Shown: positions 15,303-36,535 of the stretch, piece by piece
Layout of the letters: every line of letters begins with the position of its first letter
Position numbering within the stretch: position 1 is the first letter of the stretch
Origin: an uncultured Acidimicrobiia bacterium
GTDB lineage: Bacteria; Acidobacteriota; Terriglobia; Versatilivoradales; Versatilivoraceae
Length of the DNA: 64,000 nt
Assembly: GCA_963752385.1 (NCBI GenBank)
Contig: CAVVYL010000065.1
Coordinates: 274,571 to 338,570 of the forward strand
Direction of reading: 5' to 3'
Made by a program: the position numbers and the translations under genes
Notes under the pieces: generated by a model
The model's input: the letters and a program-made list of their open reading frames with translations, nothing else
The model's database searches: none
What the model was told of the DNA's origin: nothing

Positions 15303-15638
15303 ATGATCGATGCCCTCTTCCCTGCGAATCCATCTGATCATCACCCTGTGGGCGCTTTGCTGGTTTGGATGTCATGGGTGATCCACCGAAGACGCCATTA
15401 GGAAGTGGGCACACCCTATCCAGAGTAAGACGAAGCGCATGGCCCCCTCGTCGACTTCTTTCGTCAGCTTCGCGTGCGACAAAGGCGAATCGGTCCTCCG
15501 ATTGGGAGGTAGCGCTAATGTTCCGAAGAACTTTCCCAGTGATCGACCTGGCTGCTGAAGTGGATTGGTCGAAAGGGACAGCCACACTCAAGGACCCAAC
15601 GCTCGAGGTTGTGCTGCCTAAGGTCGCTGCCGGCGGTT
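15303..15638 (+). pseudogene. possible degraded Hsp20/alpha-crystallin remnant
   Basis: Frame b ends FRRTFPVIDLAAEVDWSKGTATLKDPTLEVVLPK, which matches the Hsp20 C-terminal (F.R.F.LP...A...dGvL.v.lPK) signature. The upstream parts sit in other frames and are shortened. Confidence 0.3.
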
Positions 15639-18305
15639 GATCCACTTCGTGAGCTCAACCACAGCAATGGGGAGGAGGATCGTCAGACCGGCAATGCCTC
15701 CGTCTGCCATGGTCGGTCGGGACAAGTCCAGGACACGAGTCAAGGGAGTCAGAGAAAATGCCAGCAACTGCAACCCGACCATGGCGGCTGCAGCCAGCCA
15801 GATGAAGGGACTGCGAGACAGTCCTTCAAAGGCTGAGCGGGTGCGTGAGCGGCAGTTGAAGAAATGGCCGATCTGAGTGCCAATCAGTGCCAGGAAAGCG
15901 ACCGTCCGCGCATGGGCCCCTTCGCCGTAATAAGAGAGAGCCCAGACATAGGCGGCCAGGACAATCGTGGCCAACAGGATGCCCTGCCACACGATCAGGA
16001 TCATGAACCGGCGTGACAGCAGCGCGGATTGCGGCGAACGCGGCGGGTGCCGCATGATGTTTCGCTCGGCAGGTTCGACAGCCAAAGCCAGTGCTGGAAA
16101 CACATCGGTCACCAGGTTCATCCAGAGGATCTGCAGAGGCAGCAAGGGCAGTGGCAGGCCGGCGGCAATGGCCACAAAGATGGCCAGTACTTCGGCAAGG
16201 TTGTTGGAGAACATCATGTGGACAAACTTGGTGATGTTGGCATAGATCGTGCGCCCGCCCTCGACGGCCTTCAAAATGGTGGAGAAGTTGTCGTCGGCAA
16301 GCACCAGGTCTGAGGCTTCTTTGGCGACTTCGGTTCCGCGTTCTCCCATCGCCACGCCGATGTCAGCCCGCTTGAGGGCCGGGGCGTCGTTGACGCCATC
16401 ACCCGTCACGGCGACGACTTCGCCCGCCTGCTGCAGAGCTTCCACAATCCGCAGCTTGTCTTCCGGTGAGACGCGGGCGAAGACATCGGTGGTGCGTACC
16501 ATCCTGGCGAGTTCCTCCGGGCTGGCGTTGGCGAGATCGCGCGCGTGCAGCGCCTGGAGGGGGGCGTCGCCGTTCAGTCGCAACTCCTGGGCGATGGCGC
16601 GCGCCGTCTGAATCTGATCTCCTGTCAGCATGACCACCCGGATGCCGGCTGCATGGGCCCCCTCAATAGCAGCCGCCACTCCAGGGCGTGGGGGATCGAT
16701 CATTCCGACGAGGCCAACAAACGTAAATCCCGCCTCCAGGCCTGTGCTGCCGCTCACATCGAAATGCGAGTGGTCCAGCCACTTGCCAGCCAGTCCGAGC
16801 ACACGCAATGCCCGGCTCGCCATGGCCTCATTCATACTCAGGAATCGCGCCCGCGAATCGGCATCCAAAGAGTGGTTAGGAATCCCGGTCGAGTAACCTG
16901 TCGAAGCGTCAAGGACCACGCCTGGCGCTCCTTTCATCGCTACAAAGTGGCGACCATCCCCAGCGCGGTGCACCGTAACCATCCGTTTCGTGGCAGCATC
17001 GAAGGGAAGTTCATGAATCTTGGGGCAGGAGGCTCGCTCGCGGTCGATATCCATGCCCAAGTCATGAGCGGCAGAGAGCAGGGCCGTTTCTGTCGGATCC
17101 CCGAGACCCTCAACGCGATTTGCCGAACTCCGGTGCAGCACCGCCTCGTTGCAGAGAACGCTGATTTGCACGGCATGGGCCAACAAGCCGTCGTCATTCA
17201 GAGAGAGTGGTCTGCCATCGAGTTCAATTCGTCGGCCGTCGGAAAGGTGAAATTCGCGGACGCTCATCCGATTTTCGGTGAGTGTTCCGGTCTTGTCGGT
17301 ACAGACGACGGTCGTGCTGCCGAGTGTTTCGACGGTTGGAAGCCGGCGTACGATGGCCCGCTCGCGCGCCATGCGCAAAACACCGAGCGCCAGAATCAGC
17401 GTGGTTACGGCTGGCAATCCCTCGGGGACGGCCGCGACAGCAAGACTGATGGAGACCTCCACCATGATCCAGAAATCATCTCCTCGCAGCCAGCCCGTGA
17501 TCAGCACCGTCACAGCGATGGCCAACACGATGTAGACCAGCCGGTGACCCAGTTCGTTCAGACGGATCTCCAGCGGAGTCGATTCGTCTGGCGCCTCCGC
17601 CACCAGTCGGCCAATGTGTCCCAATTCCGTGCTCGCGCCTGTTGCCGTCACGATGGCAAGGGCACGGCCGGCGGCGATCGTCGTGCCGAGGTAGAGCATC
17701 GAATGGCGTTCAGCGATTGGAGCCTCGGCACTTACGACCTCGGCCGATTTGTTCACTGGCGCGCTCTCGCCAGTCAGAGCCGACTCTTCCGCGCGAAGTG
17801 CTGCGGCCTCAATGATCCTGGCGTCAGCCGGGACGCGGTCTCCGCCGTTCAAAATGACGATGTCGCCGGGTACGAGATCCTCGGCGTCGACACTCAACTC
17901 AACTCCATCGCGCCGGACTCGGGCCGTCGTATGCGCCTGGCGCCGAAGCGCATCCAGCGCCCGGCCAGCCTGCCATTCTGTGCTAAAACCCACCAGCGCA
18001 TTCAGGACGAGAACAATCAGGATCGCCACCGCTTCGACCACATCGCCCGTCAACCAGGCAACTGTAGCCGCAACGCTGAGGAGGGCCACAATCAGGCTGG
18101 CGAACTGATCAGCCAGGATACGCCAGGCCGGGCGCGGGCGGATACTCTGCAGGATGTTCGAGCCATAATTCTTGCGGCGCTCTTCCACAGTGCCGGAATT
18201 CAACCCCTGCGCCGGGTTGACGTTCAATGCACCGGCAACTGCAGTGGCATCCAGGGAGTGAGGCTTTGCGTTTACAAACATGCCCTTGGAGGGGTGGGTC
18301 GGCAA
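15618..18305 (-). CDS. P-type cation-transporting ATPase (P2-type, Ca2+/Mg2+-ATPase-like)
   Basis: 895 aa with the CTDKTGTLT phosphorylation motif (VVCTDKTGTLTENRMSV) and the hinge VAVTGDGVNDAPALKRADIGVAMG. It has TGES-type actuator and ten-TM architecture. An alternative ATG lies at 18281. Confidence 0.85.
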   Translation of the reverse strand: MPTHPSKGMFVNAKPHSLDATAVAGALNVNPAQGLNSGTVEERRKNYGSNILQSIRPRPAWRILADQFASLIVALLSVAATVAWLTGDVVEAVAILIVLVLNALVGFSTEWQAGRALDALRRQAHTTARVRRDGVELSVDAEDLVPGDIVILNGGDRVPADARIIEAAALRAEESALTGESAPVNKSAEVVSAEAPIAERHSMLYLGTTIAAGRALAIVTATGASTELGHIGRLVAEAPDESTPLEIRLNELGHRLVYIVLAIAVTVLITGWLRGDDFWIMVEVSISLAVAAVPEGLPAVTTLILALGVLRMARERAIVRRLPTVETLGSTTVVCTDKTGTLTENRMSVREFHLSDGRRIELDGRPLSLNDDGLLAHAVQISVLCNEAVLHRSSANRVEGLGDPTETALLSAAHDLGMDIDRERASCPKIHELPFDAATKRMVTVHRAGDGRHFVAMKGAPGVVLDASTGYSTGIPNHSLDADSRARFLSMNEAMASRALRVLGLAGKWLDHSHFDVSGSTGLEAGFTFVGLVGMIDPPRPGVAAAIEGAHAAGIRVVMLTGDQIQTARAIAQELRLNGDAPLQALHARDLANASPEELARMVRTTDVFARVSPEDKLRIVEALQQAGEVVAVTGDGVNDAPALKRADIGVAMGERGTEVAKEASDLVLADDNFSTILKAVEGGRTIYANITKFVHMMFSNNLAEVLAIFVAIAAGLPLPLLPLQILWMNLVTDVFPALALAVEPAERNIMRHPPRSPQSALLSRRFMILIVWQGILLATIVLAAYVWALSYYGEGAHARTVAFLALIGTQIGHFFNCRSRTRSAFEGLSRSPFIWLAAAAMVGLQLLAFSLTPLTRVLDLSRPTMADGGIAGLTILLPIAVVELTKWINRRQRP

Positions 18306-18494
18306 CCAGCCACCAGTTGAGTGAGTGTGGAAAGGAAGGCTTATCCGTCGACCCGATTATACATGCAAAATGTTTGGAGCAGATCCCTGATCAGAACTAG
18401 CAAGGCAACTTCCACCAAAAGGCCATGTCAAAAACTTTGGCGGCTTGGAAAGCCAGCTTTTCTTTAGCAGAGCAGCTGCTTGTGATTCCGGTTG

Positions 18495-18510
18495 TGTGAC
18501 CTAAGTCATA
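18495..18510 (+). promoter_or_regulatory. Crp/Fnr-type operator TGTGA-N6-TCATA upstream of radical SAM gene
   Basis: gtTGTGTGACctaaGTCATAgcaaa lies about 95 bp upstream of the ATG at 18607. It is near-identical to the site at 22023-22038. Confidence 0.55.
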
Positions 18511-18606
18511 GCAAACCTACCCCGCTTCGCTTTAGGCTTGATCCATGTGGTTGCAGAGGTTCTGTGGTCCGCCACTCCATTATTGACTTAGTTTGGGAAG
18601 AAGTGA

Positions 18607-19698
18607 ATGCAACGTCCGAATTTTCAGCAGAATCCTTACATAGCAATTTGGGAAACCACACGCGCTTGCGAGTTGGCTTGCCTGCATTGTCGCGCGGAAG
18701 CCATCAAGTGGCGTCACCCGCTGGAACTCACCACCCAGGAAAGCACTCAGCTCATTGACCAGGTCAGCCAGTGCGGCAACCCGTTGTTTGTGCTGACCGG
18801 CGGGGATCCGATGAAGCGCTACGACCTCTTTGAGTTGATCCCTTACGCAGTTCAAAAAGGCCGACGCGTCGCCATGACACCCAGCGGCACACCGCTGATG
18901 ACTCGCCAAGTGGTGACCGAACTCAAGAAGGTGGGGCTGGCTCGTCTAGCGGTGAGCCTCGATGGCTCGAAGGCAGACATTCACGACCATTTCCGGCAGG
19001 TGTCCGGCTCTTATGGCTGGACAATGAACTGTATCGACTACGCGCACGAAGCGAACTTGCCGGTGCAGATCAATACCACGGTGTCCCGGCATAATCTGGG
19101 CGACCTGCAGGCCGTGGCCGATCTGTTGCTCACCAAGAACGTCACGCTGTGGAGCGTCTTCTTTCTAGTGCCAACGGGACGGGGGAAACCCGAAGATGAA
19201 GTGAGCGCCAATGATTACGAGCGCGTGTTTCACTTTCTGGTCGAACTCTGTCTGAAGGCCCCATTTGACATCAAAACCACGGCAGCTCCACACTACCGGC
19301 GCGTGCTGCTGCAGCGGTTGCAACAACTGCCGGCGCACCAGCGTTCGCAGAAGCTGTTGCAGGCTGGACCCATTGGCCGTGCCGCCGGAGTCAACGAAGG
19401 CCGGGGCCTTCTCTTCGTCTCACATACCGGCGACATTTTTCCCAGCGGGTTTCTGCCAATTTCTGCCGGCAATGTGCGCACGAACTCATTAATTGACGTT
19501 TACCGCAATTCGCCTCTCTTCCGAGATCTCCGCGACACATCAAAACTAAAAGGCAAGTGCGGCGACTGCGAGTTTAAGGAAATTTGCAGCGGTTCACGGG
19601 CACGCGCCTATGCCATGACTGGCGACTACCTTGCCGAGGAGCCCTTCTGCAGCTATGTTCCCAGAAAAGTACGGGCACGGCATGTAGTGCCCATATAG
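18607..19698 (+). CDS. radical SAM / SPASM-domain protein of unknown function
   Basis: Radical SAM cluster motif CELACLHC (C-x3-C-x2-C) in IAIWETTRACELACLHCRA. The C-terminal Cys-rich auxiliary-cluster region is KGKCGDCEFKEICSGSRARAY. Confidence 0.8.
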   Translation: MQRPNFQQNPYIAIWETTRACELACLHCRAEAIKWRHPLELTTQESTQLIDQVSQCGNPLFVLTGGDPMKRYDLFELIPYAVQKGRRVAMTPSGTPLMTRQVVTELKKVGLARLAVSLDGSKADIHDHFRQVSGSYGWTMNCIDYAHEANLPVQINTTVSRHNLGDLQAVADLLLTKNVTLWSVFFLVPTGRGKPEDEVSANDYERVFHFLVELCLKAPFDIKTTAAPHYRRVLLQRLQQLPAHQRSQKLLQAGPIGRAAGVNEGRGLLFVSHTGDIFPSGFLPISAGNVRTNSLIDVYRNSPLFRDLRDTSKLKGKCGDCEFKEICSGSRARAYAMTGDYLAEEPFCSYVPRKVRARHVVPI

Positions 19699-19752
19699 TT
19701 GGACCGCGGCGCATGCCGGGTCCAATACCCTTGTTCATAAGGAGATTGAATC

Positions 19753-20479
19753 ATGACCATCCATATCACAAAGACGGTGCGAGAGGTTGCCGTTGAGCTG
19801 CCTGAAGCAACCCGAGTTTTCGAGAAGTTAGGGATTGACTACTGTTGTGGCGGTGGCAAGGCTCTGCAGGAAGCTTGTCTCGCGGCGGGCGTACCCACAG
19901 AAAAAGTCGTCGCTCTTTTGGAAGACGCTGCCCGTCTTGCGTGCAAATTCGATCAAGGCCCGTGACTGGAATTCAGCACCATTGGCTGACTTGGTAGCTT
20001 ACATCGTCACCCGGCACCATGAATTCACGCGAGAAGAACTGGTCCGGTTAAGCGAACTATTGGCGAAAGTCTGCTCGGTGCATGGAGAAAATCATCCAGA
20101 GCTCTGCAGACTCCACACCATCTTTCAGGAGCTGAAAGCCGAACTGATTGGACACATGTCCAAAGAAGAGCAAATCCTCTTTCCTTACATCGAAAATCTG
20201 GAGGCGGCCGTCGCACGCGGGGAGCCGGCGCCGACGCCAGTCTTCGGCACCGTGCGCTATCCTGTCCGGATGATGATACAAGAGCACGATGACGCCGGGC
20301 AGGCTCTCCGCGGCCTCAGGGAGGCGAGCTCGAATTACCAGGTTCCATCAGATGGCTGCGTCAGTTTCCGCACCTTGTATCGGGCATTGGAAGAGTTTGA
20401 GCAGGACCTGCATGAGCATATCCACTTGGAGAACAACATTCTGTTTCCGCGCGCGACTGAGCTGGAGGCGAGTGCCTGA
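19753..20479 (+). CDS. RIC/YtfE-like iron-sulfur cluster repair di-iron protein, copy 1 (ScdA_N domain + hemerythrin domain; frame change near 19955-19965)
   Basis: 19753-19965 encodes ...FEKLGIDYCCGGGKALQEACLAAGVPTEKVVALLEDAARLACKFDQGP*. The +1 frame continues ARDWNSAPLADLVAYIVTRHHEF...EEQILFPYIE...HIHLENNILFP, which are hemerythrin HHE motifs. The junction matches E. coli YtfE ...EKDWRSAPLAEIID. Confidence 0.7.
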
Positions 20480-20973
20480 TGAATACAGGTCGGCGTCACG
20501 AAAGTTTGATCCCCCTTTCTCGCGAGCATCACTACGGTCTGCTGGTCTGTCTGCGAATCCATCGCGGCATTGTGAAGCACCATACTGATCCGGATTGGCT
20601 CAGCGAACGTGCCGAGAGGGTGATCCGCTTCGAGAGTGATCTGAAAACCCACTTTGAAGCGGAAGAGAAGATCGTATTTCCGGCCATGCTCGAAATTGAG
20701 GAAGCCGGCACGGTCATCGAGCAGTTGATCAAGGAGCACCGGGCCGTCACCAGGCTTGTCGAGCGGCTGAGGCGATCTAGGGGTTTGCAGCTGGCTCCAC
20801 TGCTCCGGGAGTTTGCGGATCTCCTCGAAGCTCATATCCGGCAGGAAGAACGTGTCCTGTTTCCCTGTTACGAGCGGAACATCTCGGCCAAAGAAGCGGG
20901 GCAGGTGAAGATTCAGATTCTGCAAGTCATTGGTAGTGCAATGAAACCTAAGAACCCTGTCCTTTTGGAATGA
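20479..20973 (+). CDS. hemerythrin HHE cation-binding domain protein
   Basis: 164 aa with paired H/E motifs (REHHYGL...HFEAEEKIVFP...EHR...HIRQEERVLFP). Its start overlaps the stop of the preceding gene (ATGA). Confidence 0.7.
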   Translation: MNTGRRHESLIPLSREHHYGLLVCLRIHRGIVKHHTDPDWLSERAERVIRFESDLKTHFEAEEKIVFPAMLEIEEAGTVIEQLIKEHRAVTRLVERLRRSRGLQLAPLLREFADLLEAHIRQEERVLFPCYERNISAKEAGQVKIQILQVIGSAMKPKNPVLLE

Positions 20974-21147
20974 GAAATGAAGCCTCAATCGAGCTGCAGA
21001 GCAACCGCCGGCTTCCTGTGGATGTGAATGGAGCCCAGGCTCAGATGTACATCGTCAATCTGGGCGTCGCGTCTTTGTTCAGCACTCACGCCTCGCCCTG
21101 TCTTTCGAGAGCATTTTCCCAAGGTGGTCTTGCTCGCCAGCCTTATA

Positions 21148-21861
21148 ATGCGGGCTATGCACATCAAACTAGAAAAGGCAGACCGCATCAACACATTGAG
21201 AAAAGTGTCTTTCTTCTCTCATCTAGAGGATGAGGCGCTGCAGTCCTTGGCAGAAACCGCCGTCCCGAAGGGTTGGAGCAAAGGCGAAATCATTTTCAGT
21301 GAAGGGAGTCCTTGTCCCGGCCTGTTTGTCGTGCATTCAGGAGCGGTAAAGATCTTCAAGACTTCGTTGAAGGGCCGCGAACAGGTCCTCACGATCGAAA
21401 CGACGGGGCGAGCTATCGCCGAATTGGCCGTCCTCGATGAGGGCCCGTATCCGGCTTCGGCGATGGCGATGGAGGAAGCAACCCTGCTGCTGATCCTGAA
21501 ACAGGATTTCCAGAATCTTTGTCGCCACCATCCGGAGATTGGGTTCAGGATCATCAAGGCCCTGGCGGGCCGTTTCCGCAAGCTGGTAGGACTGGTCGAG
21601 GCCTTGGCCTTTCTGGAGGTGGGACAGCGGCTGGCGAAGTTTCTGCTTGAAAAAGCCAGCCAGCCGGAGAAGCACGGCGGGCATGTAGAGTTCACGCTGG
21701 ACCAAAGCCACCAGGAATTGGCCGCGCAGATTGGGACCGTCCGGGAACTCGTGTCCCGTTCCTTCGGACGCTTTCAAGAGCAGGAGATCCTTTCCGTCAA
21801 GAACCGCACCATCACCATTCTGAATATGGAGCGTCTCAAAGAAGAAGCCCACGCGGAGTAA
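21148..21861 (+). CDS. Crp/Fnr-family transcriptional regulator (cNMP-binding + C-terminal HTH)
   Basis: cNMP-binding beta-roll (GEIIFSEGSPCPGLFVVHSGAVKIF...) and a C-terminal HTH (QSHQELAAQIGTVRELVSRSF). There is no N-terminal Cys cluster of the FNR type. Confidence 0.8.
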   Translation: MRAMHIKLEKADRINTLRKVSFFSHLEDEALQSLAETAVPKGWSKGEIIFSEGSPCPGLFVVHSGAVKIFKTSLKGREQVLTIETTGRAIAELAVLDEGPYPASAMAMEEATLLLILKQDFQNLCRHHPEIGFRIIKALAGRFRKLVGLVEALAFLEVGQRLAKFLLEKASQPEKHGGHVEFTLDQSHQELAAQIGTVRELVSRSFGRFQEQEILSVKNRTITILNMERLKEEAHAE

Positions 21862-22022
21862 CTGCTCGATCCGCTTTTTATACCTGCGAAGTTCAAGGAC
21901 TCACCGAACCGCGACAACAAGTGCCACCGTTTGCGAACTCTGGGCCCTCAACCTAGAATCTTCCCATCGCGAGTAAGGATCAACCATCATCCCATTTTCG
22001 AAACCTCCCAATAAGTCAGAGT

Positions 22023-22038
22023 TGTGACTTAGGTCATA
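22023..22038 (+). promoter_or_regulatory. Crp/Fnr-type operator TGTGA-N6-TCATA upstream of NnrS-like gene
   Basis: gtTGTGACttagGTCATAgcaag lies about 75 bp upstream of the ATG at 22116. It shares TGTGAC.TA.GTCATAGCAA with the 18495 site. Confidence 0.55.
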
Positions 22039-22115
22039 GCAAGCGCTGAGTAGCGGCTTTACTATCGAACTCAGGAGCAGAGCGGGATCAGCCAAACCTG
22101 ATCGGAGGGTCATCC

Positions 22116-23948
22116 ATGAAGATAGCCACCAATTGCACAATTCGTGAGCTGCTGGGACGTTTTCCACGGACGCGCTCTGTCTTTGATCGCTACGGACTGA
22201 AGGGCTGCGGCGGGATTGAGGGCCCCACAGAGTCACTAGCCTTCTTCGCTCGGGCCCACGGTGTCGACTTAGATCATCTTTTGCAGGAATTGCAGCAGGC
22301 AGCTGCAAGCCCGGAAGTGGCGCCCGTCCAGGAGGTAGTCAGCCCCGCTGATACCATCTACCGCCGTTTCTTCAAAGCCGGCATTGCGATTACACTCACG
22401 GCAGGAGCGGCGTGGGGTGCGTTGCTACTCATCACCATCGGGTTAAAAGGAAGCTTCACGGCTATCTCGATCTTTGACATCAATGCTCACGGTCATGCCC
22501 AGATCTTTGGATGGGTTGGCCTTTTTGTGATGGGCTTTGCCTACCAGGCTTTCCCGCGCTTCAAACATACATCGCTCTGGAATCCCGGCTTAGCGGTATT
22601 GACGTTTTATCTGATGCTGGGAGGATTGATCTTGCGAGTCATTGGCGAACCGCTCCATCGGTTTGCTCCCCTGTTTTGGATCGGGCTTCTAGGCACGGTA
22701 TTGGAGCTGGCGGCAATCGGCTTGTTCATTCTGATCATTACTAAAACGTTCCGTCGAAGTCAGAAACCGCTCGCTGCTTACGACTACTACATCGGCGCGG
22801 CATTCTTCTGGTTCCTTGCACAAGCCGTCCTGGACCTCTTTCATCTCTACATGACGACCACAGCCCCCACCAGGACACTACTGCTGCAACAAGTGGCTAC
22901 CTGGCAGGCGCCGTTGCGGGACTTGCAGATTCACGGCTTTGCCTTGACGTTAATCCTGGGCGTGAGCCAGCGATTCCTGCACGGCATGTATGGCTTCCCG
23001 GAAATCCCCCGCCTCCGCGCGTTGGGTGTGCTGGTGCCGTTGACAGCCGCTGTAGCCGGTGAAGCCCTTTTCTTTGTGCTTTTTCGAAAGACTGGACAGC
23101 ACCTCTATGCGGGGTTCATGTACGCCTGCATGATGGTGATTGCTGTTTCCGTGGTCGTCCTGACACGCAGTTGGTGGATCCATTTCTGGGGCCGTCCGGC
23201 AGAAGTGCCTGAAGAAATCACAGCCGACCGGGCAGACCGTAGCTTTAAGTTCATTCAAGCGGCCTATGCCTGGTTGCTCGTCTCGCTTGCCATGCTGCTC
23301 TTCGTGCCTGTCTACAACCGGCTCACGGGGCAAGCCTTCTCTCATGCCTTTTATGGGGCCACGCGCCACGCGATTACAGTCGGCTTCATTAGCATGATGA
23401 TTCTCGGGGTAGCCGCCAAAGTGGTCCCGGTGCTGAACGGAGTGGATGCTCGCACCCTGTCACGCCTCTGGCCGCCTTTCATTTTGATAAACGCCGGTTG
23501 CTTCTTGAGAGTCAGCACACAGGTTTTGACTGACCTCGTGCCTGGAGCTTTCTCTGTGATTGGCCTGAGTGGCCTGCTCGAAGTCACTGGCATTGCTGTT
23601 TGGGGAATCGGATTGTACCGAGTGATGAACTCGACGAATGAGCGCCTCCAAACAGTGGTGGCTCGACCTGTTTCGGTCGGTTCCGACGACAAGCCCGGAC
23701 CGGTTGTTGACGCCGCACCAGAATTGTTGGCGGTGTTTGCTCAGTTTGGCTTTGCCTCGCTCCAAAACCCGCTTTTGCGCCGCACGCTGGGGCGGCAGAT
23801 CACGATTCGGCAGGCCTGCCGGATGCACAATGCCAATGAGCCAGCACTGCTGGAGGCACTCAACGCAGCGTTGAGTCGCGGCAAAGAGACCCAAACGAGC
23901 CGTTTCCCCATACTCAATGCCTCAGGCATTCCAGCACCGAGGCGGTGA
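22116..23948 (+). CDS. NnrS-family heme-copper membrane protein with N- and C-terminal DUF1858/ScdA_N-like domains
   Basis: N-terminal MKIATNCTIRELLGRFPRTRSVFDRYGLKGCGG resembles the ScdA_N/DUF1858 fold. The central 12-TM region has HGHAQIFGWVGLFVMGF and other conserved His, which are NnrS hallmarks. The C-terminal APELLAVFAQFGFASLQNPLLRRTLGRQITIRQAC is again DUF1858-like. Confidence 0.7.
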   Translation: MKIATNCTIRELLGRFPRTRSVFDRYGLKGCGGIEGPTESLAFFARAHGVDLDHLLQELQQAAASPEVAPVQEVVSPADTIYRRFFKAGIAITLTAGAAWGALLLITIGLKGSFTAISIFDINAHGHAQIFGWVGLFVMGFAYQAFPRFKHTSLWNPGLAVLTFYLMLGGLILRVIGEPLHRFAPLFWIGLLGTVLELAAIGLFILIITKTFRRSQKPLAAYDYYIGAAFFWFLAQAVLDLFHLYMTTTAPTRTLLLQQVATWQAPLRDLQIHGFALTLILGVSQRFLHGMYGFPEIPRLRALGVLVPLTAAVAGEALFFVLFRKTGQHLYAGFMYACMMVIAVSVVVLTRSWWIHFWGRPAEVPEEITADRADRSFKFIQAAYAWLLVSLAMLLFVPVYNRLTGQAFSHAFYGATRHAITVGFISMMILGVAAKVVPVLNGVDARTLSRLWPPFILINAGCFLRVSTQVLTDLVPGAFSVIGLSGLLEVTGIAVWGIGLYRVMNSTNERLQTVVARPVSVGSDDKPGPVVDAAPELLAVFAQFGFASLQNPLLRRTLGRQITIRQACRMHNANEPALLEALNAALSRGKETQTSRFPILNASGIPAPRR

Positions 23949-24029
23949 TTGCTCTTGTGACGGCCAGTGCCGATTGTTTTCTGCCAAAGCAACTGACCGC
24001 TGGCTGAAATCATCGCCTCCGCGCGCTTC

Positions 24030-24731
24030 CTAAGGCAGCGGCTTTGCAATGATGCGAAAGCCCAGGTAGGCCGCGCTGACTTCTGGCTGGAATGTTTCCC
24101 GGTAGGGCAAATAAAGGATCGCGATGCTGGCGCTGTACCACGAACCGCCGCGCACCACGCGCCTTCCGCCTGCATTTTCACGATTGCGCCCATCGTTGTC
24201 CAAATAGGGATAGTCGCGGCTGAAGGTTCGGTCCAGGGTTGCGGTCCACTCGGCCACGTTGCCCGACATGTGATAGAGTCCGTACCGATTCCCGGTGAAA
24301 CGCAGGCGTGTTTCCCGGAGCCCGACAACGGTGACCTCGGCAGAGGGATTCTTTTTCCAGTTATAGAAATCGACCTCCCCATCGCTCACCAGGCTGCTGA
24401 GCCCGTAATCAAAACTGTCCGGCCCGCGTGCGCCTTTTTCCCACTCGCCCTCTGTCGGCAGTGCAAACAACCACCGGCCTTTTCCCAGCGTTCTTGTCAG
24501 CCAGCGGCAGTAAGCGCTGGCCTCGTACCAGTTGACACCGGTCACCGGCTGATCGCTCTGTCCGAAGCGCGCGTACTCGGCATCCCCCGGTCTGAGTTGG
24601 GCTGAAGCCTCAGTGGGCTTTGACGATCTCCACTGCCTTCCGGCTTCAGACCAGTTGGCGTCGTTAGGGTAACCATCCTGGTTCCGCAGAAAGGCCCGAA
24701 ACTCGGCATTGCTCACTTCAAACCGGTTCAT
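24030..24731 (-). CDS. formylglycine-generating-enzyme (FGE-sulfatase/SUMF1) domain protein, possibly N-terminally truncated
   Basis: NRFEVSNAEFRAFL, GVNWYEASAYCRWL, LPTEGEWEKGARG, GNVAEWT, RGGSWYS and YLGFRI are all FGE-sulfatase domain motifs. Confidence 0.7.
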   Translation of the reverse strand: MNRFEVSNAEFRAFLRNQDGYPNDANWSEAGRQWRSSKPTEASAQLRPGDAEYARFGQSDQPVTGVNWYEASAYCRWLTRTLGKGRWLFALPTEGEWEKGARGPDSFDYGLSSLVSDGEVDFYNWKKNPSAEVTVVGLRETRLRFTGNRYGLYHMSGNVAEWTATLDRTFSRDYPYLDNDGRNRENAGGRRVVRGGSWYSASIAILYLPYRETFQPEVSAAYLGFRIIAKPLP

Positions 24732-26120: not shown

Positions 26121-26235
26121 ATCTGTCGCCCATCGAACAAACGAAGTCATTGCCATCTATCCTATTACAGCCCCGCTGAACCGCCAGCTTAGGGTCGTCA
26201 GAGCGCAGCGCGGGGTGTGCGAAAAGAAAAGGTGA
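26077..26235 (+). other. 52-codon ORF encoding the N-terminal 29 residues of a PFOR/NifJ-type pyruvate:ferredoxin oxidoreductase followed by unrelated sequence; ends 5 nt before the next ATG
   Basis: MERRRVTIDGNEAAASVAHRTNEVIAIYPIT matches the PFOR N-terminus (M..TxDGN.AAA.VAY..SEVAAIYPITPSS). It then diverges ([21 protein letters not shown]). The stop TGA is at 26233-26235 and the downstream ATG at 26241. Confidence 0.6.
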
Positions 26236-26240
26236 AGTCC

Positions 26241-27233
26241 ATGGACCTGACAACGACTTACCTGGGACTCAAGCTGAGAACGCCGCTGGTCCCATCAGCC
26301 TGTGGTCCGCTCTCCAACAGTCTTGGCAAGATCAGAGGGCTTGAGGATGCGGGTGCATCGGCTATCGTGATGTACTCGTTATTTGAAGAGGAGCTTCTTC
26401 ACGAGGCTCAAAAACTTGACCATTACTTGACTTATGGATCCTACAGCTACGCGGAAGCCTTGAGCTATTTTCCCGAGCCCAAAGACTACGAGCTGGATCC
26501 TGATCGCTATCTGAAACACCTCTACAACGCCAAGCGAGCCGTCGGAGTTCCTGTAATCGGCAGCCTCAATGGAGTTTCCACCGGTGGCTGGGTGAAGTTT
26601 GCCAAGGAGATTGAACAGACGGGAGCTGATGCGCTGGAACTGAATATCTATTACGTTCCCACCGACCTCGACCTCCCTGGCATTGAAGTCGAGCAGATGT
26701 ACGTCAATGTCCTGGAAGACGTGAAGCGCACAGTCAAAATTCCGGTAGCCATCAAACTGGGACCCTTTTTCAGCAACATGGCTCACATGGCAAAGCGCTT
26801 GGTCAACGCTGGGGCGGATGGCTTGGTGTTGTTCAACCGGTTCTACCAGCCGGACATCGATCTGAAGCAATTGGAAGTGGTCCCGAATGTTCTGTTGAGT
26901 ACACCGCAGGCGATGCGCCTCCCCTTGCGCTGGATTGCGATTCTCTACGGGCGGCTTCAAGTGAGTCTGGCGGCCACCGGCGGCATTCATAACTCTGAAG
27001 ATGTCGTCAAGATGCTGATGGCCGGGGCGGACGTCACCATGCTGTGCTCAGCTCTTTTGAAAAATGGCATCGGTTGGATAAGGCAGGTAGAGAAGGATGT
27101 CGTTCGATGGATGGAAGAGCACGAGTACACGTCTGTCGAGCAGATGAAAGGAAGCATGAGCCAGAAATCCTGTCCACACCCGTCTGCCTTTGAACGCGCG
27201 AACTACATGAAGGCACTGAAGAGTTATGTGTGA
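26241..27233 (+). CDS. dihydroorotate dehydrogenase-like (DHO_dh family TIM-barrel flavoprotein)
   Basis: [28 protein letters not shown]...[14 protein letters not shown] matches the dihydroorotate dehydrogenase-like protein family. The C-terminal region has [21 protein letters not shown]. Confidence 0.7.
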
Positions 27234-27391: not shown

Positions 27392-28145
27392 ATGAAGGTT
27401 GCTACCACAAGCAAGACTGTCCGAGAGTTCGCTCTCAAGCTCCCAGGAGCTACATGGGTCTTTGAGAAGTTAGGAATTGACTGTTGCCGTGGGAGCGGCA
27501 GGGAGCGCCGGGAGGCCTGACCAGAATGGGGGTGTTGCTGAAGAGAAAGTCGTGGCGCAGGAGGCCAGCGAAGCTGCGACTTGTCCGGAAGGCGAGCGAG
27601 ATTGGAGCACAGCTCCGCTTTCGGCTCTGACGAGCTACATTGTAACCAAACACCACAAATTCACTCGCGAAGAGCTCCCAAGACTCATCCAATTGCATGT
27701 CAAGGTGTGTTCGGTCGATGGCCAGCATCATCCGGAGTTGGTACCCATTCACTCGATTCTCCATGAGCTGCAGCAGGAACTGACGAGTCAGATGCTGAAA
27801 GAAGAGCAGATTCTTTTCCCCTACATTGAGCAGCTGGAAGAGGCGGCTGGTCGCGGGAAGCCCGTTCCCACGCCGTTCCCTTGTGGAACCTTACGGAACC
27901 CGATTGAGTCGATGATGCAGGAACACGAACAAACCGAACAGGCACTGCGTCGCCTGCGTGAGATCAGCTCCAACTATGCCGTTCCGGCGGACGCCAGCAT
28001 CATCTTGCGCACGCTCTATGAGGCGCTGGAATACTTCGAGAAGGACCTTCATCAGCACATCCATCTTGAGAACGACATCGTATTCCCAAGGGCCGCGGAA
28101 CTGGAGGGCCTGACCCGGACAAGCAGCAACCAAAGAGAACAGTAA
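27392..28145 (+). CDS. RIC/YtfE-like di-iron protein, copy 2 (ScdA_N + hemerythrin; frame change near 27505-27520)
   Basis: 27392-27520 encodes MKVATTSKTVREFALKLPGATWVFEKLGIDCCRGSGRERREA*. The +1 frame reads ...GVAEEKVVAQEASEAATCPEGERDWSTAPLSALTSYIVTKHHKF...EEQILFPYIE...HIHLENDIVFP. Confidence 0.7.
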
Positions 28146-28936: not shown

Positions 28937-29930
28937 CTACGGACGGAAGTCCATCCCTTTGTCTCCTCCTGCGTGGCTCGCGGCCGCCGTCACCCAGGGC
29001 TCTGAATGCTCTTCTTTCTGTGGGACAAGCCAAACAGGGCAGGGACTCTGATGAAGAACTCCTTGCGAATTGGCGCCAAAGATCATCCGGTCGACCACGT
29101 TCTTGGCATGGGCGCCCATGACAATAAGCGTCGCCCGTGCGCTGTGGGCATAGGCAATAATCTCATGGACGACTGACCCCATCCGCACTTCGAATTTCAC
29201 ACGGCTCAGATACTCTGTTGGAACCAATGCCTTCAACCGCTCCAGAGAAGCGGTGATTCTTTGATGCCTCTGCTCTTCGAAATGCAGGGAGTGGCCCACG
29301 GCTCGAAAGTCATCCAGCGCCAACGGGGCCTCGACGTGTAACAGATGCAGCCTCAGGGGCAGCACGTCCATCAGGCTCAAGGCATACTCCAACGCATGCA
29401 GGGAATGGGTAGAGAAATCCATCGGCAGCACCACAGTTTGGAGCGAGCAGGCATCCCTGAAGTCCGGGAGCACAGTTGCCGAGGTAGTTTCTCTGGTTTC
29501 TCTGGTAGTGAGGACCGGACACGGTGAGTGAGCCAAGACACGATCAGTATGGGAAGTATGCTCAGCACTGCTGGGATCATGAGTTCCCATCACAATGAGA
29601 TCTGCCGGAAGCTGCCGGGCCAGGTGCAGGATACATTCATCCAGTTTCCCAAAAGTGATCCTTCCCTCATACTTGATCGATTTGGGGAGTTTCTCGAAAG
29701 CCGCTTTGAGCAGACGGGAAGCTTGAGCCTCCCTTTCTTCTTCTGGGTACATGTGGGTTTCGGAATACATCCACGCGTTGGCTAGGAAGACGGGAGGCAC
29801 GTCATCGATATTATGCTGGACCATCATCCTGGCGCCGAATCGCTCGCAAATTTGTGCGGCTAGCCTGAGTTCTCTGTCTGAGAGCGTTGAAAAATCAACG
29901 GGGCAAAGAACCGTCTTTATGTCCATCATG
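28937..29930 (-). CDS. tandem universal stress protein (two Usp domains)
   Basis: MMDIKTVLCPVDFSTLSDRELRLAAQ... A second Usp domain (VVLPMDFSTHSLHALEYA...) ends in VMGAHAKNVVDRMIFGANSQGVLHQSPCPVWLV. Confidence 0.75.
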
Positions 29931-30617
29931 GCAGGCTCCTTTCTGATGAGGAAGCTGCCTTGTCGGAATTTAGGCACAGGTTGCGAAGCGTGGCGCAGGC
30001 AGATCTTCCTAACCTGCCGATATCAGTGCAATCCAAGAGCCAGAGAGTTGATGAGACTCCTTCGCATGTAGCTTGTTCTGCAACAAGGACGGGCATCATC
30101 TTGATCACTTTCTTTTCAGGAAGCTTGGAACTGAGGTGGGTGGATTCACCAATCTCTGCGGAAATTCACCCAGCCAGACTACGGCACCGAAAACTGCTCC
30201 CGAGAATCCAGAAGGATTCAGTCCAGACAAGCAACGCGATCACGCATTAGGCAGATAGGAGGCAATGGAAATGGCACCATGGGCGACCGTCACTTTAGCG
30301 GGTGTCGGTTTGGCTGGCGGGGGACTCGACGGTGATTGTCGGCGCCGGGAGTCATACTGTTCGATCCGATTTTTCAAGGCCTGGCTATTCGCTCATGGCC
30401 GGCGAAGTGGCTTCGCTGCTGTTGTCGCGCATGACGGTGCCCATTCTGTATACCTGCGTGAAAAACGAATGCATCACCATCAGCTGGCAAGTCGAGACCC
30501 TAGATCGTGAGCGACCGGAGATCGCGTTAGGGTGGTTGGTCGGGGAGTCAGCCACGAGCATGGAGCCGACTCAACTTCGCCAACTTCGGCGTTCCGGTCT
30601 TATGAAGTTGCTCTAGT

Positions 30618-30929: not shown

Positions 30930-31793
30930 TCAACCAGTCTCAGTTCTGAGCTTCTCCTGCAACCGGCCCATAGCTACCAGAATTCCGTACAGTAAGGCCT
31001 GCGGCGGTGGGGGGCAGCCTGGAATATACATATCGACCGGGATCACCTGGTCCACACCCCCCAGTGACGCATAGGTGCAACCAAAGATTCCTCCACTGCA
31101 GCCACAGGCGCCCACAGCCACCACCAAACGCGGCTCTGGTGTGGCGTTGTAGGCCTTCTTGAGTGGGATCTCCATGTTGCGAGTGACCGGACCAGTGACC
31201 AGCAGCATATCCGCATGGCGCGGGGAAGCCACAAATCGGATTCCCAGTCGTTCGGCGTCATAAATGGGGCTGTTGAGGCCCGTGATTTCAACTTCGCAAC
31301 CATTGCAAGAGCCTGCGTCCACTTCGCGAATCTGCAGCGAGCGGCCCAGTACACGGCGGATTCTCTCTCGCAACCGCTCTTTGACCAGCGCTTCCGCCTC
31401 AGAGGTCTGCCGGTCTGTCTGCGCCATCTGGAGGAACTGCTGCTTCCCGCCCGCATCCAGACGGTAGTAGGCCGAGGACACCAGGTGAGAGCGATGTTGG
31501 GCAGCCAGCTCGATTTCTCCCGTGGTGCGGATCGTGCCGTCGGCGGAGGCTTCGGCACAGAGGCCGCAGAAGATGCAACGCCCGTAATCGAGCGTCACCT
31601 TCCGGTTGTCCAGTTTGTCCTCGACGGTGAGTGCGCCTGTGGGACAAACGAGGGCGGCAGGCAGACAATCTGCGGCTTTCTCGAAATCGATCACCGGTCT
31701 ACCGCGCAGGTTGGGGAGAGGCTCCATGGGGCGGGCTGGGTAGTCGGTCGTGACAACGCCTGTCACAAAGGCTCGGTTTAGAATCTTGAACAT
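30930..31793 (-). CDS. fused HycF/HyfH-like 2x[4Fe-4S] ferredoxin + HycG/HyfI/NuoB-like small subunit
   Basis: N-terminal MFKILNRAFVTGVVTTDYPARP...GRCIFCGLCAEAS is HycF-like. The C-terminal GSCNGCEVEI...RFVASPRHADMLLVTGPVT...VAVGACGCSGGIF...YIPGCPPPP holds the NuoB/HycG proximal-cluster cysteines. Confidence 0.8.
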   Translation of the reverse strand: MFKILNRAFVTGVVTTDYPARPMEPLPNLRGRPVIDFEKAADCLPAALVCPTGALTVEDKLDNRKVTLDYGRCIFCGLCAEASADGTIRTTGEIELAAQHRSHLVSSAYYRLDAGGKQQFLQMAQTDRQTSEAEALVKERLRERIRRVLGRSLQIREVDAGSCNGCEVEITGLNSPIYDAERLGIRFVASPRHADMLLVTGPVTRNMEIPLKKAYNATPEPRLVVAVGACGCSGGIFGCTYASLGGVDQVIPVDMYIPGCPPPPQALLYGILVAMGRLQEKLRTETG

Positions 31794-31853
31794 AAGGTTG
31801 GCAGCTCCAGGCAAGAATTTTTCGAGCTAAGCGCTGGTGATCAATCTTCAGAA

Positions 31854-32663
31854 TCATGTGCTGTGTCTGAAGTGAAAGCACAAATGGAAACCCAGAGCGG
31901 GGTTTCTGCGCCCGCCCGGTCGAGGGCGGAAAGCCTCGGTGCTTGCAAGTCTTCGGGCCGTGGAAATTCTCCGAAGGGAAATTAAATCTCCCGGACTTGG
32001 GTTCTTGATCGATAGCTCGAGAAATCCGATGTCCTGGAATTCCTGCACGACCCGCTCGTAACCGCCAGGCAGGTCTCCTCCCATCCCGTGAAACGTCACC
32101 ACGCGCGTGCCCGAGGGAGCTTGCGCCAGCCGATCCTGCGTCATCTTAATGTAGCGGTCATATAGAGAAGGACTCAACTCCACGCGTTCGTCGAGCTTCT
32201 TGTCAGGGTCCAGGTTTTCGTAAAACGGATTGTAAAAGTAGAAGGCGTTGTATCGGCTCCAGTCCAGGTCTCCGGCATTGGCACACAAAAAGCGCACGCG
32301 GGAAATGGCGTACCTATGAGCAAAGCTCCGAGAGAGTTCCGCCAGATGTGGTCTCTGTTCCACACCTGTAAAATTTCCCTGGGTAGCCAGTGCGCCGACC
32401 AGGCAGAATTTGCCTGGGCCTGACCCCACAGCCAGCACCTGAGTTTCGGGCCCGCTGACCAACAACTGGGCGGCGCGGCGAGCCACGTGGACCGGAGTCC
32501 AATGCATGATGGAGAATCGGCGCCAGCACAGGGGGAGAATGCGGTCGAACTGCGCATTCCATACGTGAGCACCGGTCCGCACACGGTCAAAGAGTCGCTG
32601 TATTTCGCATGAGTGTTCTTTCTCGATATCTAACAGTGCCTGTCTGAGAGGAGAAGCAGTCAC
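31854..32663 (-). CDS. class I SAM-dependent methyltransferase-like protein embedded in complex operon
   Basis: Motif I-like QVLAVGSGPGKFCLVGA. It sits between the large-subunit and small-subunit genes, and its function is unknown. Confidence 0.45.
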   Translation of the reverse strand: MTASPLRQALLDIEKEHSCEIQRLFDRVRTGAHVWNAQFDRILPLCWRRFSIMHWTPVHVARRAAQLLVSGPETQVLAVGSGPGKFCLVGALATQGNFTGVEQRPHLAELSRSFAHRYAISRVRFLCANAGDLDWSRYNAFYFYNPFYENLDPDKKLDERVELSPSLYDRYIKMTQDRLAQAPSGTRVVTFHGMGGDLPGGYERVVQEFQDIGFLELSIKNPSPGDLISLRRISTARRLASTEAFRPRPGGRRNPALGFHLCFHFRHST

Positions 32664-32718
32664 TGAATTGCTCTCGCAGTCGCTTTGGGTTGATTGTCGA
32701 TGGCGCTGTGCCAGTGTT

Positions 32719-34379
32719 TCATCGGTCTGTTCCTGAGTAAGAGAGATTGAAGCTTTTGTTGATGACAGGAAAATCCGGAATGATGTTGCCCTGCACGGCT
32801 TCGGGCAGGGCCGGCCAATTGTTCAATGAAGGATCTTTGATCTTGCAGCGAGCCAAACTGCCGTTTTTCCCGGTGAGCACCCAGTGAAGGATTTCGCCGC
32901 GCCAGCCTTCCACGTAACCGAGAGCGCAGCTTTCCGGCGGGATGGGTGGTAGTGCAGTACTCACCGGGCCCGGGACAGCAGGGCCAATGCTTCCAGCGCG
33001 ATGCGGATTGAATCCAGGGCCTCCCCCATACGCACCCGCATCCGGTCAAAGACATCCCCTTTGGAATGGAGGACCACCTTCGGAGGAATTTCGTCGTACG
33101 CCGCGTAGGGAAAGTCCCGGCGAACGTCGAGGTCCACTCCGGACGCGCGGGCGGCAACCCCCACGACGCCCAGGTCCACAGCGGTTTTGTGCGGGAGAAT
33201 GCCGGTCGTCTCCAGCCGGTCGCGAGTAGAGGCGGACGAGAGAATCAGATCCACTAGCGATTCAAACTCCCTTTTGAGGAAGCGTAGCACGCCGGCGGCC
33301 CTCTGAATCTGCTGGGGATCCCAGTCGCGCCGCAAGCCGCCATACACATTCATGCTTCGCAAGAGGCGGTTGCCGGTCAATTCGGCGTTTAAGCACAACA
33401 GTTGTTCCTTCAGGCGCATGGCGTGTGCGTTAGCCACCATGAATCCCACATCCGTGGCAATGGCGCCCACGTCAGCAATGTGGTTGTACAGCCTTTCCAG
33501 TTCGAGCAGCACGGTTCGCATCAACCGGGCCCGACGCGGCACTTCGACGCGCGCCAGGCTCTCGATCGCCTGGCAGAAAGCGGTGGAGTGACTGAAGCTG
33601 GAATCTCCTGAAATGCTTTCGGCAAGGAAGACCGCGTGCGCGAGCGGCTTGTGCTCGAAGAGTTTCTCGGTGGCCTTGTGGGTGTAAAACAACCGGATTT
33701 GCAGATACAGCACCGGCTCGCCGGCAACACTAAAGCGAAAATGACCGGGCTCAATGATGCCGGCATGGATCGGGCCCACGGGCACCTGAAATACGCCTTC
33801 GCCCTCCACTGGGCGGAACAGGTGACGGGGACCTGGCAAGGGCAAGGGCCTGGAGAACAGGTCGAAGTCCTTGCGCAGTGGATGGACCCTGTCCGGGAAA
33901 TCGTCATGGAGCGCCACACGGCGCGGATTGGGGTGGCCCACGGCCGTCAGCCCAAACCAGTCCTGGATTTCCCGCTCCTGCCAGTTGACCGCAGGAATCA
34001 CAGGTGTCAGCGACGGGAATTCAGGATCGGTTGCGGGAACCGGCGTTCGAACGAGAATGAAGCCGCCAGCCCGGTCGCAAGCAAACGTGTACTGGAGATA
34101 GAAGACTTCCTCCTCTTTGCGCCGATCGATGCCAAACACCATGGCCAACCGTATCTTGCGAAGTTTGTAGAGGTGGGCCGCGATGGCAGCAATTGAGTCT
34201 CGCCCGGTTTCCAGATAGACCTCGTTGGGACGCCTACTATAAAGCCGCTGGATCTTGCCGCCAAACGCCATCTGCAGGTCGGCGACAATGGAACCTACCC
34301 CGTTTGCCTCACTCATAAAAACGCTCCCAAATGGAATTGCTTCTCCGCGCCGGATTTCCTGCAGTAATGCCGCGGTCAT
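32719..34379 (-). CDS. NuoC-NuoD/HycE-like fused large subunit lacking Ni-Fe cysteine ligands (frame change near 32960-32985)
   Basis: NuoC part: AMVFGIDRRKEEEVFYLQYTFA...NWQEREIQDWFGL. NuoD/HycE part: VPVGPIHAGIIEPGHFRF. The N-terminal RxCGxC is replaced by ESISGDSSFSHSTA. The C-terminal DPCxSCTDR is replaced by FNLSYSGTDR (in the 32719-32964 ORF, shifted frame). Its ATG overlaps the upstream stop (ATGA at 34376-34379). Confidence 0.8.
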
Positions 34380-35859: not shown

Positions 35860-36521
35860 CCTCGCAATCGTCGTAGTTTACTGGTGTCCATCGACTCGAA
35901 GGTTTCGGCGATGCGATAGGACAGAATGCCCAGGATCATCACACCCACCAACAGATCGAAGAGGATTCCGACTTCCACAATCAGCGGCATTCCATAGGTC
36001 AACGCGATTGCAGCCAGGAAGAGCCCATTTTCGGCCGTCAGCAGCGCCACGACCTGTGAGATGGCCTTCCGCCGGTTCATCATCAGAAAGAACCCAATGA
36101 GGAACAGGGCAGTGGCCACCGCCAGCGAACCGTGACCGTGCTCTTGAGACTGACTGAACGGGTGGGCCACCAGGTAGCCCAGCAGCGTCAAACCGCCGCA
36201 GATCAAGATGGACGCCGGCGTGTTCAGGTAGCCTTCCACTTCCTCCTGCGTGTCAGTCTGGCGGATGATGCGCCGCAACAGCAGCGGCATCACGATGACC
36301 TTCAACAGCAGTGTCAGCCCGGCTGCAATGTAAACGTGATGGGCCTGGTTGACATAGGCCACAGCCGCGGCTAGACAGGCCAGGAAGAACGACTGCAGGC
36401 TGAACAGCGCAATGACCGTGGGTAAGAGCCTCTGGCCCACCAGCAGCATCTGCACCACCAGCATGGCAGCGGCCATCAATGTGATCAGCCGGTGTCCGAG
36501 TTCCACGGAGTCATAGGACAT
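35856..36521 (-). CDS. HyfE-like small membrane subunit
   Basis: MSYDSVELGHRLITLMAAAMLVVQMLLVGQR... About 221 aa and polytopic. It is positioned between the HycD-like and HyfF-like genes as in hyf operons, with ATGA overlaps at both ends. Confidence 0.6.
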   Translation of the reverse strand: MSYDSVELGHRLITLMAAAMLVVQMLLVGQRLLPTVIALFSLQSFFLACLAAAVAYVNQAHHVYIAAGLTLLLKVIVMPLLLRRIIRQTDTQEEVEGYLNTPASILICGGLTLLGYLVAHPFSQSQEHGHGSLAVATALFLIGFFLMMNRRKAISQVVALLTAENGLFLAAIALTYGMPLIVEVGILFDLLVGVMILGILSYRIAETFESMDTSKLRRLRG

Positions 36522-36535
36522 ACGGAACGCCTTTC

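Follow-up and report, generated by a model that had tools for sequence, protein, structure and literature searches.

Crp/Fnr-family regulators that respond to nitric oxide (NO) or to nitrosative stress are the closest described counterparts of the system presented here. DNR and NnrR act from class II positions, and NnrR is an activator. They control nor and, in some species, also nnrS and dnrN, the latter corresponding to RIC (PMC1274295). Desulfovibrio HcpR (HcpR1) is a predicted activator under nitrite or NO stress, with hemerythrin-like genes among its targets (PMC1274295). In other phyla, NO reductase, RIC and NnrS together are a hallmark of NO-responsive regulons, namely those of DNR, NnrR, NsrR and NorR (PMC1274295, PMC9268430). 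Here, we analyzed a 64,000-nucleotide (nt) stretch of DNA (hereafter the window; GenBank assembly GCA_963752385.1, contig CAVVYL010000065.1, positions 274,571 to 338,570, forward strand) from an uncultured bacterium of the class Terriglobia, phylum Acidobacteriota, in which two near-identical operator-like sites flank the gene of a Crp/Fnr-family regulator. Members of the Acidobacteriota belong to the most abundant bacteria in soil, and their transcription regulation is almost unexplored.

We consider it probable that these two sites are operators of the adjacent regulator and belong to a Terriglobia regulon in which this protein acts as a class II activator under NO or nitrosative stress. The system would be a lineage-specific Terriglobia branch of the known NO-responsive Crp/Fnr regulators, with RIC, and not hcp or nir/nor, as its defining core target. 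Because NO-responsive Crp/Fnr activators are well known, such a branch leaves the general picture unchanged. It would nevertheless give a concrete regulator-operator pair and a promoter layout for Acidobacteriota (operator at -41.5, weak -35 element, TAnnnT as -10 element), and the regulon would be readable from metagenomes, and with it how these organisms cope with NO released by neighbouring denitrifiers and nitrifiers. It would also tie several proteins without assigned function to NO stress, namely the TIGR04053 radical SAM protein, the DUF438-hemerythrin-PAS protein, the DUF1858-NnrS fusion, DUF3079 and YwiC.

Two near-identical operator-like sites in the window

A first-pass annotation of this DNA had proposed that a shared operator precedes both a radical SAM gene and an NnrS-like gene, with the regulator gene between them. 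Both sites were found where they had been placed, on the + strand: site 1 at positions 18495-18510 (TGTGACCTAAGTCATA), pointing toward the radical SAM operon, and site 2 at 22023-22038 (TGTGACTTAGGTCATA), pointing toward the NnrS-fusion gene, each an exact match to the search pattern. The sequence TGTGAC-N4-GTCATAGCAA occurs exactly twice in the 64 kb, at 18495-18514 and 22023-22042 on the + strand, and the pattern combining the core with the shared tail (TGTGACNNNNGTCATAGCAA) matched exactly at these two places in the window, whereas 100 dinucleotide-preserving shuffles yielded no match. Aligned without gaps, the two 20-nt segments share 18 of 20 bases, with both differences in the 4-nt spacer; the near-identity noted earlier is thus real, but the quoted figure of 20/23 can only be reached by placing a 2-nt gap in the GTTGTG prefix. 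The half-sites TGTGAC and GTCATA form an imperfect palindrome, whose perfect form would end in GTCACA. From the end of the site to the start codon we measured 96 nt for site 1 (ATG at 18607) and 77 nt for site 2 (ATG at 22116), close to the 75-95 bp estimated before. Site 2 starts 161 nt past the stop codon of the regulator gene.

To score the sites we used a 22-nt weight matrix built from 50 oriented sites of other genomes, with the window excluded (consensus c-TGTGAC-AWAA-GTCAT[AC]-G-n-C). Site 1 reached 24.6 bits and site 2 20.3 bits, both in the direction of the downstream gene, and the next-best match in the window scored 8.4 bits. This third candidate (60724-60739; TGTGACATGCGTAACA) was dismissed as a chance match, as it has neither a TAnnnT hexamer at the proper offset (see below) nor a plausible downstream gene. 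Control of the divergent P-type ATPase gene upstream of site 1 (15618-18305, - strand) was likewise rejected: in reverse orientation site 1 scored 12.6 bits, but the flank facing that gene lacks a TAnnnT at offset 21. An Rfam scan of the whole window gave no match, so that the conserved 5' regions do not represent known riboswitches or other known RNAs, and the composition profile of the window gave no sign of a foreign island.

A Crp/Fnr-family regulator with a CRP-type recognition helix

The presumed binder of both sites is encoded between them (21148-21861, + strand). The protein matches Pfam cNMP_binding (PF00027, 76 bits) and HTH_Crp_2 (PF13545, 64 bits) and carries the traits of the Crp/Fnr superfamily, that is, a cNMP-binding-type beta-roll, a long dimerization helix and a C-terminal helix-turn-helix domain. 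Its AlphaFold2 model has the CRP fold (predicted local distance difference test score, 92.4), and the top Foldseek matches were all CRP/FNR proteins. In the public annotation, the regulator gene (P0001) starts at 21028 and encodes 277 amino acids; it is probably ~40 codons too long, as most homologues have 233-235 amino acids and begin near 21148.

The recognition helix GTVRELVSR was invariant in 117 homologues, and its residues R199, E200 and R204 align to R180, E181 and R185 of E. coli CRP, forming a CRP-type R-E-x-x-x-R helix. The R180/E181 combination goes with TGTGA rather than with the FNR-type TTGA (Rodionov et al. 2005, PMC1274295), and the third base of the half-site was G in 100% of 118 strong sites. 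Desulfovibrio HcpR, also of the Crp/Fnr family, likewise has Arg/Glu at CRP positions 180/181 and the CRP-like box wTGTGAnnnnnnTCACAw (PMC1274295). The same pairing of residues and box is found here, with R199/E200 invariant and a box that begins with TGTGA, and the Geobacter HcpR box TTGACnnnnGTCAA has its GAC-N4-GTC centre in common with the motif of the window (PMC1274295). We propose that a dimer of the regulator would read TGTGAC-N4-GTCAYA through this helix, using R199, E200 and R204.

The box had first been assigned to a CRP/HcpR/NnrR class, of which the CRP and Desulfovibrio-HcpR types fit. The FNR-like box of DNR, TTGATnnnnATCAA (TTGAT-N4-ATCAA, PMC1274295), differs from the TGTGAC-N4-GTCAYA seen here. 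Furthermore, DNR is only 22% identical to the regulator and ranked below Mycobacterium CRP in the profile search. DNR and NnrR are NO-responsive members of the Crp/Fnr family, as is proposed for the regulator, and like it have no FNR-type cysteine cluster. The closest solved sequences were M. tuberculosis Rv3676 CRP and Corynebacterium GlxR (26-28% identity, profile E ~1e-42), whose recognition residues RE align with R199/E200. These actinobacterial proteins bind a TGTGA-N6-TCACA box. They are global metabolic regulators, in contrast to the narrow stress set described below, and have the cAMP-binding Arg/Thr of GPRTSS where the regulator has Tyr101/Pro102 (GPYPAS).

This last difference bears on the signal. 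Arg82/Ser83 of CRP are replaced by the invariant Pro102/Ala103, in the stretch where GPRTSS of the M. tuberculosis protein aligns to GPYPAS; with these cAMP phosphate-binding residues replaced, the regulator is therefore unlikely to be a cAMP receptor. It also scored well below the NCBIfam model of CRP sensu stricto (NF008732, 76 bits against a cut-off of 266). Moreover, FNR binds a [4Fe-4S] cluster through N-terminal cysteines and Cys122; the N-terminal extension with its cysteine cluster is absent here, the only cysteines being C56 and C125, and the FNR model (NF008365) gave 68 bits against a cut-off of 228. No NCBIfam equivalog cut-off was reached. Sensing would accordingly proceed neither via cAMP nor via an FNR-type Fe-S cluster.

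Three residues, Cys56, Cys125 and His128, were 95-99% conserved among the homologues. In the model, Cys125 and His128 lie where helix B meets the dimerization helix; Cys56 belongs to the beta-roll. One may speculate that they form a cofactor or redox site, which could for example hold heme, as in DNR, HcpR or CooA. The HcpR of P. gingivalis (HcpR2), a heme-based NO sensor and nitrosative-stress activator (PMC12750200), has a similar fold and domain layout and gave the best TM-score to the model (0.70). Yet it is only 19% identical to the regulator and falls outside the 60 best profile matches, and its proposed heme ligand (Met68), its box (GTAAC-N4-GTTAC or variants) and its target (hcp) all differ from what is found here. 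In these comparisons HcpR1 was represented by its published description, and HcpR2 and DNR by identity, profile rank and structure match.

The motif accompanies the regulator across Terriglobia

We sampled 80 Terriglobia species with one genome locus each, taken around a regulator homologue; the homologues are 45-67% identical to the regulator and derive from Terriglobia/Acidobacteriota metagenome-assembled genomes. With up to two mismatches from TGTGAC-N4-GTCACA allowed, 113 sites were found in the 80 loci, as compared to 33 +/- 7 in shuffled loci, and they concentrated close to the regulator gene, in the 250 bp upstream of it and over a few hundred bp on its downstream side. Of the 80 loci, 77 had a site that reached 12 bits or more. 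RIC came next after the regulator gene in ~65 loci, and the spacer separating the two contained TGTGAC-AAAA-GTCAT[CA].

The motif was also retained in front of individual target genes. In a relative with an 85%-identical regulator (L081), which we compared through its gene table and a 1.5-kb fragment, the core of site 2 was identical, followed by a -10 element at offset 21, and preceded the orthologous NnrS-fusion gene. In L003 (65% identical), TGTGACTAAAGTCATA precedes both a RIC-NnrS operon and the TIGR04053 gene, and the same motif was found at the orthologous TIGR04053 genes of L003, L019, L038, L073, L041, L077, L047 and L079. Metagenome contigs were scanned for the motif together with a -10 element (TGTGACANAAGTCAT-N22-TANNNT), independently of the regulator, and 45 of the 120 fragments selected in this way turned out to encode a regulator homologue as well.

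These data bear on whether the sites could instead belong to another CRP-type protein encoded elsewhere, such as a true cAMP-CRP, with the adjacent regulator being there by coincidence. Proteins of the cAMP-CRP type likewise have TGTGA-N6-TCACA as their box, and the nearest solved relatives of the regulator are, as mentioned above, Mycobacterium CRP and GlxR. Against this stand the adjacency of motif and regulator gene in 77 of 80 species, the recovery of the regulator from motif-selected metagenome fragments, and a target set that comprises a narrow group of stress genes and not catabolic genes. We therefore regard such a coincidence as highly improbable. The suggestion that the regulator between the sites is tied to the motif has thus held up, both by the proximity of its orthologues to the motif and by the fit of R199/E200/R204 to TGTGA. 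From these comparisons of sequences we have high confidence that both sites would serve as operators through which the adjacent regulator controls a stress regulon.

Promoter geometry suggests class II activation

Among 136 sites of at least 12 bits, a TAnnnT hexamer starts exactly 21 nt after the 16-mer in 94 and 22 nt after it in 6, and every other offset from 10 to 39 nt occurred at most three times. The sequence between site and TAnnnT is not conserved. If TAnnnT is taken as the -10 element (-12 to -7), the centre of the site falls at -41.5, the position of class II Crp/Fnr activators; given this putative -10 assignment, the offsets place the centre at -41.5 in 94 of the 136 sites and at -42.5 in 6. 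In the window, the putative -10 elements are TAGGCT (18533-18538, + strand), 22 nt after site 1 (centre ~-42.5), and TACTAT (22060-22065, + strand), 21 nt after site 2 (centre -41.5).

Site positions 15-20, that is, the last two bases and the four that follow, read T-C-G-G-C-A in the 118 strong sites. This hexamer, with a 17-nt spacer to TAnnnT, may act as a weak -35 element. The -35-like hexamer has 3 of 6 matches in the window and 4 of 6 in the consensus. Its counterparts in the window are TAGCAA at 18509-18514 (+ strand), which has 2 bp in common with the end of site 1, and TAGCAA at 22037-22042 (+ strand), which overlaps site 2, both in a putative role. An overlap of this kind would explain why the promoter-proximal half-site reads GTCAT in place of GTCAC, and also why both sites of the window have the GCAA tail in common.

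The same register in front of non-orthologous genes points to a stereospecific contact with RNA polymerase, that is, to activation over simple occlusion. As each site would have its centre ~41.5 bp ahead of the point where transcription is predicted to begin, and overlaps a weak -35-like hexamer, the bound regulator would most likely activate by direct contact with RNA polymerase, and our confidence in this class II mode is good. Site 1 would drive the radical SAM, RIC and hemerythrin genes, and probably the regulator gene itself by read-through, across a gap of 175 nt behind the hemerythrin gene that ends at 20973; site 2 would drive the DUF1858-NnrS-DUF1858 gene. When 18300-24100 was scanned with generic sigma-70 and terminator models, these promoters went undetected, as is expected if they depend on an activator, and the matches were no more numerous than in shuffled sequence.

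With the same binding, the regulator could act in the opposite sense, as a repressor on the -35 region that blocks RNA polymerase until the signal arrives, in the way of NsrR. The 16-mer does overlap the -35-like hexamer by 2 bp, and RIC, nnrS and hmp are commonly under the repressor NsrR in Proteobacteria (PMC1274295, PMC9268430). Occlusion, however, needs no fixed register, whereas in 100 of the 136 sites the register to the -10 varies by no more than 1 bp, before non-orthologous genes and across unconserved spacers. In addition, the poor -35 matches are typical of activator-dependent promoters, and an activator role has been described for DNR, NssR and P. gingivalis HcpR (PMC1274295, PMC12750200). 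Repression by the regulator is accordingly quite unlikely in our view.

Several points weigh against the proposed class II activator regulon. The overlap of site and -35-like hexamer leaves room for repression by occlusion, and the regulator gene of the window has no site directly upstream. The core positions of the matrix were preselected by the search pattern, such that the independent evidence consists of the spacer, the flanks, the orientation and the -10 spacing only. The genome sample extends ~8 kb to either side of a regulator gene rather than over whole genomes. A strong site is missing from the three closest species-level relatives (L001, L002 and L004, 63-67% identity), as are RIC and NnrS genes in the vicinity. 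Lastly, our literature searches found no publication describing this regulon in Acidobacteria.

Target genes point to NO or nitrosative damage

In the genome loci, the gene directly behind an oriented site was RIC in 68 cases. A NapH/MauN-like 4Fe-4S membrane ferredoxin stood behind 9 sites, the TIGR04053 radical SAM protein and a DUF438-hemerythrin-PAS_10 protein behind 7 each, and an AhbD-like radical SAM protein, NnrS-type proteins and a quinol-type NO reductase (PF22085 NorB cytochrome c-like domain plus COX1) behind 4 each, followed by YwiC (2 sites) and DUF3079 (1 site). The metagenome scan returned 121 sites, 68 of them before the same gene families: RIC (42), NnrS (9), DUF438 (5), NO reductase (5), NapH-like (3), DUF3079 (2), YwiC (1) and a multiheme cytochrome (1). 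Terriglobia-wide, the regulator and its motif would thus serve RIC as core target, together with the quinol NO reductase, NnrS, the DUF438-hemerythrin-PAS protein and a few redox genes. Given this set, the signal is most likely NO or nitrosative damage, and we hold NO as the signal with moderate confidence. As in the DNR/NnrR group, NO reductase, nnrS and RIC are associated with the regulator, here by way of oriented sites and -10 elements upstream of them.

The regulator and its operators might be correctly identified and yet answer to a different signal, such as low oxygen, iron or general redox stress, or damage done by oxidants to Fe-S and heme proteins. Oxidative stress is known to elicit a response of RIC genes in other bacteria too (PMC9268430), some of the targets are oxygen-sensitive or of an anaerobic type (the radical SAM enzymes, the NapH-like ferredoxin and YwiC), and the sensor cofactor of the regulator is at the level of a candidate. 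This is nonetheless unlikely, as quinol NO reductase, NnrS and RIC form the signature of NO-responsive regulons, and the protein has just two cysteines and lacks the oxygen-sensing cluster motif of FNR.

The first-pass annotation had spoken of an HcpR/NnrR-like NO regulon. Its NO-related part agrees with the RIC, quinol NO reductase, NnrS and DUF438-hemerythrin-PAS genes behind the sites, whereas the link to hcp does not. The defining targets of HcpR are hcp and frdX, both missing from the target set seen here; a tblastn search with E. coli Hcp gave no match in the window or in the 200 loci around regulators and motifs, and the core target is RIC, in the phylum Acidobacteriota. Hcp as a hidden member of the regulon was therefore discarded for all searched loci, control of hcp is absent from the sampled neighbourhoods, and, with no hcp linked to any site, the name HcpR fits by analogy only. 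Nir and nos structural genes were not found behind sites in the sampled loci either. In Proteobacteria and Firmicutes essentially the same genes, namely ytfE/dnrN (RIC), nnrS, hmp and norB, are regulated by NsrR (PMC1274295, PMC9268430), which is nevertheless a functional analogue only: it belongs to the unrelated Rrf2 family, is a repressor and recognizes the box gATGyAT-N5-ATrCATc.

Two kinds of site arrangement were seen in addition. In some species, AhbD-like or TIGR04053 radical SAM genes are preceded by two operator-like sites at a distance of 22-23 bp from each other (L008 5490/5512, L036 6557/6579, L071 6553/6575, L067 6484, L041 5770/5793 and L077 3500/3523), and in L041 and L077 a second, distant Crp paralogue (24-27% identity) adjoins the regulator. 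The paired sites and the second paralogue could reflect co-regulation by two family members. In the metagenome loci, the GTCATT variant of the scan pattern also precedes unrelated genes, among them those of a common protein of ~620 amino acids beginning MITTKEKLQPEV / MISDKVKLQPEV (L096, L120, L134, L163 and L191), of proteins with rubrerythrin-like N-termini (L091 and L173) and of a common protein beginning MKIEQIYTGCLAQGAYY (L169 and L185). The loci with the GTCATT variant probably represent a Crp-type regulon of another group of organisms.

Genes flanking the sites in the window

The genes around the sites are those listed in the first-pass annotation (radical SAM, RIC, hemerythrin, Crp/Fnr and NnrS), with the qualification that RIC is frameshifted in the assembly. 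The first gene of the site-1 operon (18607-19698, + strand; Pfam Radical_SAM and SPASM) encodes a radical SAM/SPASM protein of the TIGR04053 family (469.7 bits, cut-off 395), which scored 366 with the AhbD model, under that model's cut-off of 500; AhbD and NirJ are the nearest characterized relatives of the protein. Our literature searches on TIGR04053, and on DUF438 with NO, returned nothing relevant. It is doubtful, though conceivable, that Cys56/Cys125/His128 form a cofactor site unlike those of DNR, HcpR, CooA and FNR that senses NO or damage to Fe-S clusters or heme, with the TIGR04053/AhbD-like enzyme taking part in NO-triggered repair or resynthesis of heme or another cofactor. Such a site and repair route would provide the first physiological context for the uncharacterized TIGR04053 radical SAM family.

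RIC/YtfE is split into two open reading frames (ORFs) on the + strand. The first (19753-19965; Pfam ScdA_N, 69.6 bits) ends at a stop codon created by the frameshift, and the second, in the next frame (19952-20479), carries the di-iron hemerythrin domain (TIGR03652 FeS_repair_RIC, 191.5 bits, profile positions 56-216). The frameshift maps to 19927-19962, in the linker between the two domains. The RIC genes of relatives are intact (242-248 amino acids), and the hemerythrin-domain part shares 62% identity with one of them, that of L082. The split could be an assembly error, or else a real pseudogene or split gene. It is followed by a stand-alone hemerythrin-domain protein (20479-20973, + strand; Pfam Hemerythrin, 68.4 bits), whose gene is syntenic in the relative with the 85%-identical regulator.

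Behind site 2, the 610-amino-acid membrane protein DUF1858-NnrS-DUF1858 (22116-23948, + strand) matches Pfam DUF1858 in two stretches (65.5 bits) and Pfam NnrS with 29.4 bits against a cut-off of 28. Its DUF1858 domain had been called hcp-associated, and it does match TIGR03980, albeit with 44.0 bits just under the cut-off of 44.95. Homologues of this fusion lie downstream of sites in L023 and L047.

Further downstream, the relative with the 85%-identical regulator (JGI contig) has, after the NnrS-fusion gene, a gene for a 393-amino-acid FGE-sulfatase-domain protein followed by ABC-2, NosL, ABC ATPase and NosD genes; the counterpart region of the window holds only an FGE-sulfatase ORF of 233 amino acids (24030-24731, - strand) and no ORF of at least 150 amino acids between 24.7 and 26.2 kb. 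Beyond it lie a DHO_dh-like gene (26217-27233), a gene whose product carries two hemerythrin stretches (27477-28145) and one of the tandem-Usp type (28937-29977), none of which has an operator site according to the matrix scan; DHO_dh and Usp genes also adjoin regulon genes in L082 (74%-identical relative). At 30930-37609 (- strand), with no operator site near, we found a complex-I/Mrp-type cluster comprising a 20-kDa subunit plus ferredoxin domain, a fused 30-kDa/49-kDa subunit and antiporter-like subunits, which resembles a group-4 hydrogenase or complex-I-like module.

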